A stretch of DNA of 64,000 nucleotides from a virus: IMG/VR virus record IMGVR_UViG_3300045988_107814, positions 128,001 through 192,000 of that record; one strand, 5' to 3'. Under the pieces are notes generated by a model that saw only the letters and a program-made list of their open reading frames with translations, was not told the DNA's origin and made no database searches. Each line of letters starts with the position of its first letter. The first letter of the stretch is position 1. Positions 1,247 through 55,587 of this stretch are shown piece after piece. A program made the translations under genes and the position numbers.

Positions 1247-1798
1247 TTATTTGTTATAATGATAACCATTATATCTATCAGTTCTTGTAAAAGACTTTGA
1301 TGTTGTTGGTCCTTCTTGATTCTGATATCTACCATGATATAAGAAATCAACTTCTCCGTCAGGCTTTTCAAAATATACCTGTGCAACCTCGAAATTAGGA
1401 TATACAATTAACGGTACAACTACAGTAATCTCAAGTGTATATTTACCAGAAAATCCAATGTCACCAAATCCAGCTGTTAAATGTACTTGCATTCCTAATC
1501 TACCAATAGAACTTCTACCATCAATAGCAGAAATAAACTTATCAGAAGATACAGTTTCTTTAATAGATCCAATATACAAAGTATTAGGATATAAAGTTAG
1601 GCCAGATTCAGGGATAATCTTTTTTGTATATCTATTATCCTTCTTCTTCATATCTAATACAATATGCTTATCATATTGAATAATCTCATCGGCTAGATGT
1701 ACATTGTATGAATTGGGGTTTAGACAGTTGATATCGAATGGGTCAATGCCAATATTACCAAGTTTAATTTGCTTCAAAATTTCATTTGCAGTGAGCAT
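1247..1798 (-). CDS. dcd: dCTP deaminase (dUTPase superfamily)
   Basis: DGRSSIGRLGMQVHLTAGFGDIGFSGKYTLEI matches the Dcd core DGRSSLARLG..H.TA..IDPG..G. Start moved to ATG 1798 (MLTANEIL), 9 nt after AAGGAGG. Confidence 0.85.
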   Translation of the reverse strand: MLTANEILKQIKLGNIGIDPFDINCLNPNSYNVHLADEIIQYDKHIVLDMKKKDNRYTKKIIPESGLTLYPNTLYIGSIKETVSSDKFISAIDGRSSIGRLGMQVHLTAGFGDIGFSGKYTLEITVVVPLIVYPNFEVAQVYFEKPDGEVDFLYHGRYQNQEGPTTSKSFTRTDRYNGYHYNK

Positions 1799-1894: not shown

Positions 1895-4800
1895 TTATAG
1901 CAATCCTTTAATAGCTTTCATAGTATACTTTAATGTATTAGAAGTTATCTTAATAGAACTGTCAGAAAATGGTGTAGAATTATAGTAATCTGAGAAGTTA
2001 AATCCTTTTTCAGCTTTCATTACAAAATCTAAATTAAGTTTAAATACATTTAAGCAAACAGCTCTAGTATCTATTAAATCTTTATATTGTTCATTCTTTA
2101 AACGTTTCTTAAGTTCCTTTTCAATACAATCATTAATATACCATAATTTAGCAAGTTCATATTTAATACCTTCTATATTAGATTGATTTCTGTATGTTTC
2201 TAATAACTGTACTGAATCATCAATTTCATCCCCATATGATAATGATCCTGTACGAGCTTTATAAATAATAAGATTACCATCTTTATCAAACTCTATTGGA
2301 AATTGTTTTACTTCATTAAGAATAGAAGCTGATTCTTTTATTGATTTTGGAAATCTTACAACGCCAAAATATTTTTTACATTTTTTATTCGTGCATCTAT
2401 AAATTGGTTCACCCTCAAAAAATATGCCAACATCGGATCCACATTCTGTACATTTTTTAGGAACGTTTTGTCCTTTATCATTAACAAAAGATGCTTCATT
2501 TTGTACTTCTTTTTTCTTATTACTATGATCTTTAATCTTATGGAACCAGTGCCATTTATAATCATATTTGATAATGGTTTTCTTTTTATTATTAGCAAAC
2601 TTTCTTACATGTTCACCATTAACTTTATCTACTACAATACTACCTACATATTTTAATTGTACTGGTTCAAGAATCCACATTTCATTTGTAATATTTGCAT
2701 CGAAGATATCACCATCTTTGATAATTTGTTTATTAGATTTACATTTATAAGAACTGATAGGTTTTTCTGGTGTATATACATATAAAGTTTTACCAGCTAA
2801 CTTTAATCTACCAGTATCATTAATTATAGCATTTAAACATCCTTCTATAGAATTTGAGAAGCATACTCTAGGAGTTTTATATTCTTCAAAACCAAATCCA
2901 GAAGAGTCTTTTGCTAATTTTAGTTTCTCTAATGCTTGAATAAAGTTCTTGTCTTTCTTTAATTCATTAGTAATCCATGTAGGGACTCTTGGTTTTAAAG
3001 GTCCATGTTCATCTAAATCGGAGTCAAAAGAAATATGATAGAATCTCTTTTTAGAATACGGATTAACGCCATTCTTTATATCATTAAGATTCATACCAGT
3101 AATAGACTCTTCGATACTTTCTATACCAGTCTTTAATAAAGAATTAATCTTTTTCTTTGTCTTTTTACCATCGTACTTTGTAGCAACATCATTAAATACT
3201 TCAATGATCTTATTTGGAATTGCTTTAGCATGATCATATAATTGACCAGGATCAGGAATTTCAATATCTCCAACAAGATTGATATTTCCAGATTTCAATA
3301 CTGTATCTACAAAAGTAGAGCATACTTGATGGTATTCGTTTTTACTTACCTTATGATCAATCTTTAAAATCTTATTAAAGAAGATTCTTAGATCGAATGT
3401 AGTTTTATTATTTTCAAAATCTTTAACTTTATCTTTTAATTGTTTCACTATTTTAGTAGGAGCAAAGAAAGCCATTACAGAAATTATATTATCTTTGAAA
3501 GAGTCTAAATTTTCTTTAATAAATCCTGCTTTTTCTCTTATATTAAAACTATACACTTCTTTTAATTCTGGATCAAAAGAAATACTAGCATGAGAATAAG
3601 AGCTTCCAGTTACTAGTTTAATACCTTGAGAAACAATAGGTGTGTGTCCTTGTGTAAAGATTAATAATACTGGTTTATGTGTACTTTTATTTGCAGCTTC
3701 ACTTAACAATTCGTCATCATCACTTTCTGGAATATTATCTAGATTTATAAATATGTCTTTTGGAATTGTCTTGTCTAATATATCAGATACTCGTTTAGAT
3801 GCTTTTAGTCTATTCTTTCTATTAAATGGTATCTCTGGGTTCCATCCTAGATTTAGGATGGATTGTTTTCTTGCAAGGATCTTGTCTTCATTCCCAGACG
3901 ATTTAATATCTTCAAAATCAGAATATAATAAATCTAATGTATCTATCCAATCATTTCTATAATCTTCAAAAATATGATCCATGCTCATATCTTTATACGA
4001 TGCAAACCATGTAGGAATTTTTATATTTGTAATTAATCCATCATTATCTGCATCTTTACAATAAAAATTATGGTTACCATGAACCCCCATATCTATCATT
4101 TCAGAAGGAGTAAAGTATGGACAGTCGTTAAATCTTCTATGTTGTTTAGATTTAGTTGATTCTGCTTCATTTACAACTTTCATATTATTGTACACTTGAG
4201 AAACGAATTCTCCTAAAGTTTGTACAACAGAAGAAGTTTCTAATCCATCTTCTACTGGTGAAACAGATTTCTTTGTTTTAACAGTCATGGCATCCAATAA
4301 TTTCTTTTTAATATAATTATATCTATCTATGTTATTCATACCATATATAGCCATAGATTCATCATCAGATTGAACTTTATGATCATGAGATTGACCATTG
4401 TATTTGATAAATTGTTGTTCTAGGTCTTTTAATTTTTCTTCGTTTGTAATACCTTTAATACTACTGATAATAAATATATTTGAATCTATTTGAAATTGAT
4501 CAGCTATAGTATTCTTTTTAATATCATAGACAAGTTTACAGAATAAATCATCGTCATATAAATGAATTTTATTACAATCAGTTTCTGTATTAACAGGAAT
4601 CTCTGTTTCCTCATGTACTGTATCAGTTATATCATTCTCATTATCTGGAATGTCTTCATTGTCAGTATCTAATCCAATAAGATTATCAAATTCATCATCA
4701 TTAAAATTATCCTCATCTTCTTCGGGATCATAATAAACTGACTCATTATCATCTTCTTCAGAGTCTCCATATTTAGAATCTATATCAGACATAAGCTTAT

Positions 4801-5187: not shown

Positions 5188-6348
5188 TTAAAAAGTTAAT
5201 AACTTATCAAATTTTTCTTTAATAGTTTGTGCATATTGTCTAATTTCATATTGTGCATGAGGATCAGTTCTAAGTTCAAGGAATTTTAATAATGAAAATA
5301 CTGTGAATGTCATATATAATTTTCCACAGTTTACATTAGAAGGTAAGAATGCTCTTGCTTCTTCTTTTTTGAGTCCAGCCTGCATTAGTTGAGGATATAC
5401 AGACATTAGATCATCTGCGATAGTATCAAGTGATCCATTATTAATAATATCCCCAATTTTTACTGAATATTGCTTATTTTTATCATAATCCTTAAGAGGA
5501 ATAGTAAATGATGCATCAGAGTAATTTACATATCTTTGGGATTCTTGTGTAATTGCATTTCTATGTCTTACTAACTGATGAGTGGCAGTTCTAGAAATAT
5601 TTTTGAATACTACTGTAACTGGCATCATTAAATTAGCTTCTTGCTCAAAATCTACATTATTAAGAAGTTTACGATACATTTCACGATCAAATCCAATATC
5701 AACACTTTTAATTGCTTTATCACCAGCAACTGGAACATTATTTACTTTTGCATTTTTGATAACGATGCCATAATGTAAGCCTTCATATGGATTTGTTACA
5801 TATCTATTAAAGTCATTTTCATTATTATCATTAAAGATTTCAATATCATTAAATTTAAAAGTGAAATCAGGATCTTCTTCATTAATCTTAAATGTTTTAC
5901 CAAATAAACATTTAGGAAGATTAGTTTGTAATGTATTACATAAATTTAGAATGATGTTACTGCATAGATCATGTGATCCAATATTTGTAATGAATTCTTT
6001 GTATGCTCTTACATCACCGTTAATAATAAGATTATATGTTTTCTTCGTTTTTCTAAGTTTCTTAAACGGATTTCTATTTTCAGTATAATTACAAGTAGAA
6101 TAGAACTGTAAAAATCTTGCATGTGGATTTGTAATTAAACTAATGATATCGAATTCATTTTCAATACCAGTAATTTCAATAACTACTCTCCCATGCTCAA
6201 GAATAGAATCATGACCAGCATTTATTCTCTTTTCAATATACTTTGTCTTTTCTAAGTAATCAATAGCCTTATTGTTATTATAACAACAAGAACAAGCTGC
6301 ATAAATATTGGTTACAAGATCATTCTTATAAATAATTTTAGATTCCAT
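5188..6348 (-). CDS. thyX: flavin-dependent thymidylate synthase ThyX with extra N-terminal module
   Basis: HDSILEH near the N-terminus. ThyX signature QLVRHRNAITQESQRY (RHR..S..SQRY). C-terminal LELRTDPHAQYEIRQYA. Confidence 0.85.
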   Translation of the reverse strand: MESKIIYKNDLVTNIYAACSCCYNNNKAIDYLEKTKYIEKRINAGHDSILEHGRVVIEITGIENEFDIISLITNPHARFLQFYSTCNYTENRNPFKKLRKTKKTYNLIINGDVRAYKEFITNIGSHDLCSNIILNLCNTLQTNLPKCLFGKTFKINEEDPDFTFKFNDIEIFNDNNENDFNRYVTNPYEGLHYGIVIKNAKVNNVPVAGDKAIKSVDIGFDREMYRKLLNNVDFEQEANLMMPVTVVFKNISRTATHQLVRHRNAITQESQRYVNYSDASFTIPLKDYDKNKQYSVKIGDIINNGSLDTIADDLMSVYPQLMQAGLKKEEARAFLPSNVNCGKLYMTFTVFSLLKFLELRTDPHAQYEIRQYAQTIKEKFDKLLTF

Positions 6349-10180: not shown

Positions 10181-10204
10181 ATGTGTTACCTCCTTAATAT
10201 ACAC

Positions 10205-10240
10205 ATCTTAATCACTGGACACTATAATAATATGTAATAA
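10205..10240 (-). promoter_or_regulatory. TATTATAGTG promoter-like motif upstream of the ABC transporter gene
   Basis: Minus-strand read: TACATATTATTATAGTGTCCAGTGATTAAG, then AAGGAGG and ATG. Confidence 0.35.
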
Positions 10241-10254
10241 AATTAATTTTTACA

Positions 10255-10286: not shown

Positions 10287-10369
10287 GCGGATGTGGTGAA
10301 ATAGGCAGACACGATAGTCTTAGGAACTATTGCTTTAGCGTGCAGGTTCGATCCCTGTCATCCGCACCA
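10287..10369 (+). tRNA. tRNA-Leu (anticodon UAG), type II with long variable arm, CCA encoded
   Basis: Acceptor GCGGATG/CATCCGC. Anticodon stem ATAGT/ACTAT with loop CTTAGGA. 13-nt variable arm. T-loop TTCGATC. 3' ACCA. Confidence 0.9.
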
Positions 10370-10377
10370 TTATTTAT

Positions 10378-10754
10378 GCTGCTGTGGTGAAATAGGCAGA
10401 CACGAGGGACTTTAACGAAAATTCTATAAGAAAATATTTTTATTTTCAAAGTCTAATGAAGAGAGTTTGGGTATATCATTAGAACCATTTTATATGGTAG
10501 ACAAGAGCAGCTTGGGAGGGATCCCTTGGCTGAATGTGGACTAAACGGTGAAACCTAACCCAATGGTAATACCGTGCCAAATAACAAGTAATTGTTATGT
10601 GCGTAGAGAATATACATCCACCATCTAGAACAGATGAAGATTGATTCCAGACTATCAAACTACAATTTAATTAAATTGTAGGTAGTGAAAACTATAGTAG
10701 TACGAAAATCCCTTTCTTAATTGAGTGCGGGTTCAAGTCCCGCCAGCAGCACCA
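10378..10754 (+). tRNA. tRNA-Leu (anticodon UAA) interrupted by a group I intron in the anticodon loop
   Basis: Exon 10378-10412 (GCTGCTG acceptor, D-arm identical to the neighbouring tRNA-Leu, AGGGA-CTT) joins exon 10705-10754 (AAAA-TCCCT, variable arm, GCGGG-TTCAAGT-CCCGC, CAGCAGC-ACCA). The joined product is a complete cloverleaf with loop CUUAAAA. Confidence 0.8.
10413..10704 (+). ncRNA. group I intron (ORF-less, 292 nt) at U34/A35 of tRNA-Leu(UAA)
   Basis: 5' exon ends in U and the intron ends in G (..AGTACG|AAAATCC). TTCCAGACTATCAAAC and AACTATAGTAG resemble the Tetrahymena P7 strands CAGACUA/UAUAGUC. CTACAATTTAATTAAATTGTAG forms a P9-like hairpin. GAGTTT (10463-10468) can pair with the exon end, giving a U.G at the splice site. 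Confidence 0.7.
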
Positions 10755-10760
10755 TTTTTA

Positions 10761-10837
10761 GGGCCGTTGGCTTAATTGGTTAAAGCTACCGGCTCATAAC
10801 CGGTTGATTACAGGTTCGAGTCCTGTACGGCCCACCA
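10761..10837 (+). tRNA. tRNA with CAU anticodon (elongator Met or Ile2, not resolvable by eye)
   Basis: Acceptor GGGCCGT/ACGGCCC with a paired 1:72, so not a bacterial initiator. Anticodon stem ACCGG/CCGGT with loop CTCATAA. T-loop TTCGAGT. ACCA. Confidence 0.9.
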
Positions 10838-10881
10838 CCATTATGTGTCTCCAAAATATAATACTTTTATTCTCTATCTTG

Positions 10882-10916
10882 CTCTACAGGTTAATTCCTG
10901 TAGAGTCTCTCTTTTG
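10882..10916 (+). terminator. intrinsic terminator after the tRNA cluster
   Basis: CTCTACAGG-TTAATT-CCTGTAGAG followed by TCTCTCTTTTG. Confidence 0.6.
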
Positions 10917-55053: not shown

Positions 55054-55587
55054 TTAGATAAATCTGACCGAAGGGTTACCCCATTTATTATTAGTTTTAT
55101 AAATCAATCTACACAGATTAACCATGAAAGTATAATCTGAAAAGTTTGAATTAATAAAACCGCTGAGCATAGCATACGCATTATAATAGTATGCATATGT
55201 CTCATCAATAAAATGAATAGCTGGAATATTATTGATCTCTTCATTAATCTTTTCCAGTTGTTCTTGTCTATACTCTTCAGCAACAGAATTAACAGAGTTT
55301 ACTCTATTCTGCTTCCACTGCTGTACAATGTTATACAACGGCAAGATATTCGTGATCTTAGTAGCATAGTAATTATACAATGCCGTTGCTATAGAATAAG
55401 AACACAAATCTTTAAAATCTGGATTTGTGTTAATATTTGTTTCACCCATGTTTCCGAAATACAGATCCTTTACTACATTTTCAATGAATCTGTTAAGAGT
55501 ATCTGGATGAATCCTCGTAGTCCAATCAGGTCCAAGAGATTGTCTCTGGTTACTCATCCATGACTTTCTTTCTTTAAACTGTGCCAT
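55054..55587 (-). CDS. hypothetical protein
   Basis: AAAGGAGG RBS embedded in the end of the upstream ORF. 177 aa. Confidence 0.7.
   Translation of the reverse strand: MAQFKERKSWMSNQRQSLGPDWTTRIHPDTLNRFIENVVKDLYFGNMGETNINTNPDFKDLCSYSIATALYNYYATKITNILPLYNIVQQWKQNRVNSVNSVAEEYRQEQLEKINEEINNIPAIHFIDETYAYYYNAYAMLSGFINSNFSDYTFMVNLCRLIYKTNNKWGNPSVRFI

Follow-up and report, generated by a model that had tools for sequence, protein, structure and literature searches.

Group I introns inserted between U34 and A35 of tRNA-Leu(UAA) are textbook elements of cyanobacteria and plastids. To our knowledge, the cyanobacterial ones have been described as devoid of open reading frames (ORFs) and of any mobility gene. 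Horizontal movement of the tRNA-Leu(UAA) intron has long been debated (Paquin 1997 and Rudi 2002, as cited in PMC3984707). The tRNA-Ile(CAU) gene of Azoarcus sp. BH72 hosts an intron of 205 nucleotides (nt), assigned to group IC3 by the title of Ikawa 2000 in PMC3984707, and its structures are found in PMC13168695. According to a 2014 review, all phage introns then known resided in protein-coding genes, despite the many tRNA genes of phages (PMC3984707); one methods paper remarks in passing that bacterial tRNAs are often invaded. No paper on group I introns in phage tRNA genes was found in the full-text literature, subscription-only papers lying outside the search. A split tRNA-Leu(UAA) gene resides in a 64,000-nt stretch of viral DNA, positions 128,001 to 192,000 of the IMG/VR record IMGVR_UViG_3300045988_107814, hereafter called the window. 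The insert, at 10413-10704 of the window, is very probably an IC3-like group I intron that interrupts a jumbo-phage tRNA-Leu(UAA) at U34/A35, a selfish element whose homing cycle has run its course. The insertion is of a known kind; the phage-tRNA setting is absent from the literature searched.

The split gene is confirmed, and is made by three segments (related loci are denoted by L numbers throughout):

10378-10412, plus strand: 5' exon of tRNA-Leu(UAA), with the acceptor 5' strand, D arm, anticodon-stem 5' strand, C32, U33 and U34
10413-10704, plus strand: insert of 292 nt, read as a group I intron of the compact bacterial tRNA type (IC3-like), absent from the syntenic contig L254
10705-10754, plus strand: 3' exon, with A35, A36, A37, A38, anticodon-stem 3' strand, long variable arm, T arm, acceptor 3' strand, A73 and CCA

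The 5' exon terminates with ...GAGGGACTT, the last base being U10412. The insert starts with TAACG and ends with GTACG, and the 3' exon reads AAAATCCCT...CACCA. The insertion is located in the anticodon loop between U34 and A35, as in bacterial tRNA-Leu(UAA) introns, and the initial annotation had correctly placed the exon-terminal U at 10412 and the intron-terminal G at 10704. Its claim that the joined exons form a perfect type II tRNA-Leu is matched both by ARAGORN and by an uninterrupted natural allele. The product measures 85 nt, with CUUAAAA as its anticodon loop; the variable arm is long, A73 is present and CCA is encoded. The predicted junction of the ligated RNA is ...GGGACUU/AAAAUCCCU...

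The strongest check of the boundaries is the natural empty site of L254, a viral contig of 215 kb syntenic with the window (69% identity in the ABC-like gene, 82% in the RNA polymerase gene). L254 carries the same cluster of tRNA-Leu(UAG), tRNA-Leu(UAA) and tRNA-Met genes, and its tRNA-Leu(UAA) is uninterrupted. The site reads ...GGGACTT/AAAATCCCT..., which is the window sequence minus exactly 10413-10704; the intron-less type of sequence is GGCATACACGAGGGACTTAAAATCCCT. The junction is exact, and neither terminal repeats nor a target duplication were found at the insert. ARAGORN in intron mode reports the gene at 10378-10754 with a 292-nt intron, the sole intron-bearing tRNA call in the window, and made no such call in 20 first-order Markov shuffles of it. 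In the window scan, the split gene was detected neither by ARAGORN at default settings nor by the Rfam tRNA model. The intron-mode call is labelled Phe GAA, because ARAGORN sets the intron 1 nt too far left. This register, like the one yielding the anticodon UUA, was discarded: in neither do exon and intron end in U and G, respectively, as they should, and neither fits the empty site of L254.

Two weak blastn matches of the 3' end of the intron to GenBank phages led to the intron family. They fall in unannotated gaps of split genes, the dnaB gene of a Kolpuevirus (crAss-like) and the capsid gene of Pelagibacter phage HTVC120P. To avoid circularity, the covariance model R1 was trained on 43 non-redundant introns of phage tRNAs that include neither the window copy nor its relatives, and the P9 domain, which holds the motif used for fishing, was trimmed off. 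R1 matches 10503-10650 from the first to the last model position with 70.9 bits, the next best match in the 64 kb scoring 14.9 bits. The latter, at 55221-55390 (minus strand; E ~0.16) within a 177-amino-acid ORF (55054-55587), is most likely a chance match.

Folding of the 43 non-redundant compact introns by RNAalifold yielded helices P2, P3, P4, P5, P6, P8, P9, P9a and P9b; the P7 pseudoknot was added manually, and the 3' partners were slid by 1-3 columns as a control. Standard pairs occupy 97.3% of the cells in the family structure, versus 33-45% when slid. Thirty of the 46 pairs are changed on both sides (13-18 of 46 when slid), and the covariation score is 0.508 (0.06-0.09 when slid). About 43 of the 46 family pairs form in the window by our own count. 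Mapping based on MAFFT gave 38, the gap reflecting a one-base slip in P3 that is mended by the R1 alignment, which adds five. The single-sequence minimum free energy (MFE) fold of 10503-10704 recovers P2, P3, P4, P5, P6, P8, P9a and P9b (z = -3.99). The conserved P3-P8 core with the P3/P7 pseudoknot is supported by R1, pair count, covariation and MFE fold taken together. Through R1, the insert is also homologous to tRNA-Leu(UAA) introns of cyanobacteria and other bacteria, the IC3 label being that of the literature. Boundaries, R1 match and core helices together uphold the headline of the initial annotation, an ORF-less group I intron splitting a phage tRNA-Leu(UAA) at U34/A35.

Elements of the intron, in 5' to 3' order, are the following:

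10410-10413, plus strand: P1 5' strand, CUU/U, pairing with 10504-10507; 5' splice site after U10412
10414-10503, plus strand: loop L1, with the remnant of an HNH homing-endonuclease gene
10504-10507, plus strand: internal guide AGAG, directly 5' of P2, aligned to the family uuGAG (R1 positions 1-5)
10508-10532, plus strand: P2 hairpin, CAGC..GGGA / UCCC..GCUG, with the GNRA tetraloop GGGA at 10518-10521 (R1 and MFE fold)
10536-10540, plus strand: P3 5' strand GUGGA, pairing with 10617-10621
10545-10550 and 10570-10575, plus strand: P4, enclosing P5 (R1 alignment and MFE fold)
10553-10555 and 10565-10567, plus strand: P5, with A-rich J4/5 and J5/4
10576-10602, plus strand: region of P6 (G10576, C10577 with G10601, C10602)
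10581-10587 and 10592-10598, plus strand: P6a, with a GUAA loop and pair-preserving changes relative to L004
10606-10612, plus strand: P7 5' strand, G10606, bulged A10607, then GAAUA, pairing with 10644-10648
10617-10621, plus strand: P3 3' strand UCCAC (R1 alignment, MFE fold, comparison with L004)
10622-10636, plus strand: P8 hairpin CAUCU-AGAAC-AGAUG (R1 alignment and MFE fold)
10637-10648, plus strand: J8/7 AAGAUUG, followed by the P7 3' strand AUUCC at 10644-10648 (R1 alignment and family structure)
10651-10701, plus strand: P9 domain, a three-way junction, with P9 formed by ACUAU (10651-10655) and GUAGU (10697-10701)
10660-10668 and 10673-10681, plus strand: P9a, a perfect hairpin of 9 base pairs (bp)
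10682-10686 and 10691-10695, plus strand: P9b, containing UAGU-GAAA-ACUA, with the GAAA loop at 10687-10690
10704, plus strand: terminal guanosine (omega-G), preceded by AC; 3' splice site after G10704

The exon-terminal U is paired in P1 as the wobble U10412·G10505 at the 5' splice site. The P1 pair beside the wobble covaries, being U-A in the window, U·G in L246, L249 and L252, and C-G in L247; P2 of L247 also differs but is compensated. L1 has no significant structure of its own (z -1.5). P7 is formed by G10606 and G10608-U10611 paired with A10644-C10648, A10610-U10645 replacing a C-G pair of the family. At the sequence level, the predicted guanosine-binding pair is G10608-C10647, flanked by G10606-C10648 and the bulged A10607, in columns invariant in 43 of 43 family members. 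P9 covaries in the family (ACCAC/GUGGU, ACUAC/GUAGU), and P9b is CGGC/GCCG in GC-rich bacterial relatives, versus UAGU/ACUA. Family introns end with ...GUGGU-A[ACU]G, the omega-G being conserved across the alignment. The window intron is compact, without P5abc, with P5 as a simple hairpin and with GNRA loops in L2 (GGGA) and L9b (GAAA).

Some pairings proposed earlier have to be reassigned. TTCCAGACTATCAAAC and AACTATAGTAG, regarded in the initial annotation as Tetrahymena-like P7 strands around a P9-like hairpin, are both present in the 3' part of the intron and do flank a perfect 9-bp hairpin, which is P9a. They are not the P7 strands: TTCC at 10645-10648 belongs to P7, as its 3' end, AGACUAU supplies the P9 5' strand, and AACUAUAGUAG is made by the P9b 3' strand plus the P9 3' strand. 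GAGTTT at 10463-10468, taken for the guide, lies within the HNH-gene remnant and encodes E-S-L in intact relatives, the guide being AGAG at 10504-10507. A manual fold with CCAGACUAU and CUAUAGU as R and S elements lost the guanosine-binding pair to a G x A mismatch and contained no P9. It was dropped because the pelagiphage intron L002 has a canonical R...S pair upstream of the motif; the R1 alignment agreed. The reading of GUGGA/UCCAC as P4 was also wrong, as these strands form P3.

The class of the intron suggests how splicing may proceed. The tRNA cluster would be transcribed as one precursor, and the ribozyme would fold into P2, the P3/P7 pseudoknot, P4-P6, P8 and the three-way P9 domain, with GNRA loops L2 and L9b. 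Pairing of the exon end CUU with the guide AGAG (10504-10507) would bring U10412·G10505 to the point of cleavage. The first attack, after U10412, would come from an exogenous guanosine docked on G10608-C10647. G10704 would then take the same site, and the freed 3'-OH of U10412 would attack after G10704. Ligation would join exons that the 5-bp anticodon stem AGGGA/UCCCU, and not a P10 helix, keeps together. The intron probably descends from a mobile version with an HNH homing endonuclease in L1, the gene having been destroyed by two deletions.

The same intron lineage resides at the same nucleotide in 10 independent contigs (L003-L005 from IMG/VR, L246-L252 from metagenomes). In L004, L246, L249 and L251 the introns measure 620-622 nt and host an intact ORF of about 150-160 amino acids, located in L1 and extending into P2-P5. 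The ORF features a ribosome-binding site, an HH...N...H motif and a treble-clef zinc finger, and matches HNH_3 with E = 5e-5, just under the Pfam cut-off. L247 carries a decayed 361-nt intron in a different tRNA-Leu(UAA) body. What is left in the window is ...EESLGISLEP... in one reading frame and, in another, the final 20 codons (GRQEQLGRDPLAECGLNGET*); the ribosome-binding site carries mutations, and the catalytic HH...N...H region has been lost by deletion. No intact endonuclease ORF is present in the window intron, which is ORF-less because the gene decayed, relatives holding longer versions. As the ORF is reduced to fragments without the HNH motif, the element is regarded as an immobile derivative.

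Presence/absence polymorphism at one site is seen among the relatives. L254 is empty; L249, syntenic with the window, has the 620-nt intron; L252, a 1.5-kb contig sharing only the tRNA cluster, has a 409-nt intron with an internal deletion; and the window intron measures 292 nt. If homing has taken place, as the comparison suggests, intact, decaying, remnant and empty alleles make up a full homing cycle within one phage lineage. Because endonuclease-bearing, decaying and empty alleles occur at the same site in one lineage, mobility is directly testable. Other members of the wider family encode PF01844 HNH or PF11645 PD-(D/E)XK enzymes, the latter being found in L077 and L078 (63.7 bits).

The allele series bears on the idea that the intron splices and is kept for the benefit of the phage, not merely as a selfish element. 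The intron might time or gate the UUA/UUG decoder, or leave precursor or gene without an anticodon loop and thereby out of reach of host anticodon nucleases or of a competitor's endonuclease. The tRNA-Leu(UAA) product reads UUA and UUG, which make up 504 of the 1059 Leu codons (48%) in 27 long ORFs of the window. If the phage tRNA matters at all, supply of this decoder depends on splicing, as the initial annotation had suggested; no evidence was seen that this dependence is regulatory rather than incidental. The abundance of intron-bearing tRNA genes in viral contigs (107 of the 126 copies examined, and four R1 matches in L081; see below), the persistence of an ORF-less intron with an intact core and the heavy use of the codons fit a benefit. 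An occupied homing site is moreover immune to the cognate endonuclease, a general property of homing. In contrast, empty, ORF-intact, partly deleted and remnant alleles in one lineage are exactly what a neutral homing cycle predicts; at least 120 viral contigs have the same tRNA junction without intron, and a mature tRNA remains a target for nucleases. Selection for a phage benefit is therefore considered unlikely.

Features of the window intron weighing against an IC3-like, splicing-competent element need consideration. The Rfam model RF00028 has no match in the window at the gathering score, nor at E<=10 on 701 nt. The core is 55-62% identical to any member outside the lineage, and few of the 106 R1 matches score lower. 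P1 consists of 4 pairs only, closing a 90-nt loop. A10612 x G10643 (last pair of P7) and C10578 x U10600 (P6) are mismatched, and no P10 pairing is possible. The RF00028 gathering score (cut-off 50) is passed by 5 of 10 related loci, compact family members scoring 57.5-75.6 bits, and the model also misses the ORF-bearing introns of L001 (dnaB) and L004 and the ORF-less capsid intron of L002. As known family introns are missed too, the blank is ascribed to model sensitivity, and not to absence. In the initial annotation, lack of a group I model hit was reason enough to give up the intron; RF00028 is blank, yet R1 matches, and that rule would have wrongly rejected the finding. Because both mismatches are common to relatives with an intact ORF, they are traits of the lineage and not recent damage. 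In the Anabaena intron the exons are reported to be aligned by the anticodon stem (Zaug 1993, as cited in PMC3984707), and by analogy the stem probably takes the place of P10 here.

Changes accumulated within the lineage suggest selection on structure. Of the 202 nt of the core, 15 differ between the window and L004, all of these changes preserving a pair or falling in terminal loops, and none in junctions. Compensated examples are the replacement of U10537-A10620 by C-G (P3) and of C10663-G10678 by U-A (P9a). The exons too feature compensatory changes, in the acceptor and T stems of the tRNA. Over consensus columns, identity of the two intron cores amounts to 96.5%, although the variable arms of their tRNAs bear no relation to each other. 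Conservation is thus higher in the intron than in the gene that hosts it, a pattern to be expected of an element that has passed from one tRNA-Leu gene to another. The copy in L247 (Ga0247610_10236926, ~73-517 of the extracted region) belongs to the window lineage, with the R/S variant GAGAAUAU / GAUUCC, and resides among different D, variable and T arms. Evidently, to judge from these alignments, the intron moved between tRNA-Leu genes.

The same data speak to the notion that the intron, though genuinely group I, is a relic which has lost splicing, in which case the locus would be a pseudo-tRNA and the phage would rely on the host tRNA-Leu(UAA). Death of the homing-endonuclease gene, the Rfam blank on the ribozyme, the short P1 with its 90-nt L1, one mismatch each in P7 and P6 and the low R1 score for the family would all suit a relic. 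Yet mismatches and short P1 are also found in relatives with an intact endonuclease gene, and every core change since the divergence from L004 is compensatory or in a loop, none in a junction. Joined, the exons still make up a flawless tRNA whose stem changes are compensated; if the intron were dead and the gene dispensable, random damage would be expected to build up. A dead relic is consequently improbable, even more so than a beneficial intron. That the insert is not a group I intron, being instead an insertion sequence, a miniature inverted-repeat transposable element, a group II fragment, an assembly chimera or a chance split, rests on the absence of an Rfam match and is already refuted in practice by the full-length R1 match, the covariation of the family with all core helices, the same nucleotide in 10 independent contigs, the exact L254 junction free of terminal repeats and target duplication, and the zero intron-bearing calls in shuffles.

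According to PHROG and Pfam matches, the window is that part of a large phage genome which serves replication and nucleotide metabolism. Its genes include split multisubunit RNA polymerase beta and beta'-like subunits, an NAD-dependent ligase, topoisomerase II, a UvsX-like recombinase, Dda-like and DnaB-like helicases, SbcC and ThyX. The nearest cultured relatives of the polymerase subunit are those of AR9/PBS1 and staphylococcal jumbo phages (~31% amino-acid identity), and the G+C content is 30%. In the ThyX-like ORF (5188-6348, minus strand; 386 amino acids), the best Thy1 match spans residues 241-382 only; the rest may be a long N-terminal part beyond the Thy1 match, or a second divergent repeat. 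A search for relatives through the neighbouring ABC-like protein found none. Around the split gene the following features are recognized:

10200-10243, plus strand: two overlapping sigma-70-like promoter matches, TACACA-17-TATAAT and TGGACA-16-TAAAAT (weak evidence)
10287-10369, plus strand: uninterrupted tRNA-Leu(UAG), first of the cluster (Rfam tRNA, 55.5 bits)
10761-10837, plus strand: tRNA-Met(CAU), third of the cluster (Rfam tRNA, 71.6 bits)
10881-10906, plus strand: terminator-like hairpin followed by a T-rich tail, 3' of the tRNA cluster

The number of promoter matches in the region does not exceed the shuffle expectation. The split tRNA-Leu(UAA) is the middle gene of the three-tRNA cluster, spaced by 8 and 6 nt from its neighbours. 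Positions 8-27 (TGGTGAAATAGGCAGACACG, D arm included) are identical in tRNA-Leu(UAG) and the split gene, in agreement with the initial annotation, which had pointed to an uninterrupted neighbour with an identical D arm. The hairpin at 10881-10906 is likely the end of the tRNA transcription unit.

Phage tRNA genes host a reservoir of these introns. The P9b-containing 18-mer GGTAGTGAAAACTATAGT (window 10681-10698) is found in at least 119 IMG/VR contigs; with the window and loci L001-L005, 126 copies were examined. As many as 107 lie in tRNA genes split in the anticodon loop. In 67 the gene is a tRNA-Leu(UAA) split at 34/35, according to the exon-U/intron-G rule; the rest are CAU, UCU, GUU and other tRNAs. 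Lengths cluster at 194-213 nt (no ORF) and 590-710 nt (with ORF). The initial annotation had called an intron in a phage tRNA unusual, which holds for the literature (review PMC3984707) but not for sequence databases, such introns being common in viral contigs.

Bacterial genomes, one per species, were scanned with the query GGTGYAGAGACTNGACGG, and 120 matches were listed (L126-L245). Among the matches listed, 63 are tRNA-Leu(UAA) genes split at 34/35, others residing in CAU, CCU, GGU and GUA tRNAs. The split tRNA-Leu(UAA) genes come from Cyanobacteria but are also widespread beyond them, in Acidobacteriota, Alpha- and Betaproteobacteria, Bacteroidota, Chloroflexota, Eremiobacterota and others. 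R1 scores range from 97 to 173 bits in the phage training set, from 72 to 137 in bacterial tRNA-Leu(UAA) introns (63 copies) and from 82 to 99 in cyanobacterial ones; the window and L004 score 70.9 and 70.1 bits, respectively. Because of these scores and the 55-62% identity, the window lineage is viewed as a divergent branch of the same superfamily. L245 and L219, filed as bacterial genomes, hold phage-like AT-rich copies, that of L245 with the exact phage 18-mer and an ORF-sized intron of 687 nt. They could be prophages, phage contigs binned into metagenome-assembled genomes, or products of recent transfer.

Members of the family were also noticed in cultured phages and public records. In the Agrobacterium jumbo phage Atu_ph07, an unannotated tRNA-Leu(UAA) is split at 34/35 by a 278-nt intron (R1 124.5 bits). 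The locus, L124 1083-1444, corresponds to MF403008.1 ~112890-113251 (minus strand), and is overlapped in part by the 'hypothetical protein' coding sequence AUZ94936.1. The 286-nt 'tRNA-Arg' of Microcoleus phage My-WqHQDG (OR578706.1; L125 613-898) is a tRNA-Arg(CCU) split by a 213-nt intron (R1 96.3 bits), with a P9b, GGUAGGGAAACCUAUAGU, which is a pair-preserving variant of the phage 18-mer. Three GenBank 'huge phage' records also hold unnoticed family introns. In Pelagibacter phage HTVC120P, the capsid gene is annotated in two parts, gp29 and gp30, and hosts an ORF-less intron of ~190 nt (L002 1372-1519; R1 128 bits). The dnaB gene of Kolpuevirus 'frurule' (L001 1374-1518; R1 52.7 bits) is in two pieces, annotated as separate coding sequences, with a GIY endonuclease in between. 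Some contigs carry multiple copies. L081 (IMGVR_UViG_3300031998_003058), a 10-kb contig, has R1 matches at 1219-1378, 2523-2677, 3905-4050 and 5576-5723; three have the P9b motif and are placed in tRNA genes by ARAGORN, the one at 2523-2677 not being among them. L099, L121, L060 and L141 have two R1 matches each. L040 (IMGVR_UViG_3300043465_001492) holds a full-length transfer-messenger RNA at 1260-1586 (minus strand; RF00023, 82.3 bits), a few kb from a tRNA cluster with an intron-bearing tRNA.

This locus and more than 100 viral contigs contradict the 2014 view that phage introns sit only in protein-coding genes, and phage tRNA repertoires are undercounted in annotation. Such introns have been overlooked probably because tRNAscan-SE, as stated in the paper on version 2.0 (PMC8450103), is not designed to detect group I introns, and Rfam misses many. 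The copies counted above show the reservoir itself. Tentatively, and with doubts outweighing confidence, it may be viewed as a large, apparently unrecognised stock of mobile IC3-type introns, carrying HNH and PD-(D/E)XK homing endonucleases aimed at tRNA anticodon regions, and phages as the vehicles that spread tRNA-Leu(UAA), Ile, Met, Arg and Asn introns among bacterial phyla. If so, the 'ancient, immobile' tRNA-Leu intron of cyanobacteria and plastids would be one frozen offshoot of a still-mobile family.

Among known systems, the cyanobacterial/plastid tRNA-Leu(UAA) intron shares with the window intron the gene, the U34/A35 site, three exon nucleotides paired to a ...GAG guide directly 5' of P2, the compact P2-P9 architecture and, as far as the analogy goes, exons held by the anticodon stem. 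Cyanobacterial copies matched by R1 include those of Nostocaceae (L155), Nodularia (L158), Calothrix (L163) and Oscillatoria (L132), at 82-99 bits. In contrast, the host of the window intron is a jumbo phage, and not a cell or organelle, and the core is only ~55-60% identical. The P9 domain is of the ACCAC...[hairpin]...GGUAGUGAAAACUAUA-GUGGU form in window, phage and non-cyanobacterial introns, and of the AAUUCUC...GAGAAU form in the cyanobacterial ones. L1 of the window intron holds a homing-endonuclease remnant, unlike cyanobacterial tRNA-Leu introns. The Azoarcus tRNA-Ile(CAU) intron is similarly compact (~200 nt, 194-213 nt in compact phage members) and located in a tRNA anticodon loop. 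Its core is presumably near-identical to the phage family consensus (AAAUUCGG.GAAACCU...CCGAGCCAAGC...GAAGGUGUAGAGACUAGACGG), a likeness to be taken as a lead and not as a test. It differs in tRNA and insertion point; the R and S elements of the window have diverged (GAGAAUAU/GAUUCC), and the window copy is longer, at 292 nt, because of the L1 remnant.

Known mobile group I introns that reside in tRNA anticodon loops with a homing endonuclease resemble the phage members L077 and L078. The window lineage differs from them as its enzyme, now dead, is HNH-type and sits in a phage tRNA-Leu gene. Introns of phage protein genes (T4 td/nrdB/nrdD, SPO1 and Bastille DNA polymerase, Twort) are likewise phage-borne, encode HNH-type or other homing endonucleases, and feature presence/absence polymorphism and endonuclease-ORF deletion derivatives. 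Those of T4, SPO1 and Twort belong to subgroup IA, and not to the tRNA type. For the lysin intron of S. thermophilus phages, three deletion derivatives are on record (Foley 2000, as cited in PMC4177764). All these introns interrupt coding genes, whereas the window intron interrupts a tRNA gene.

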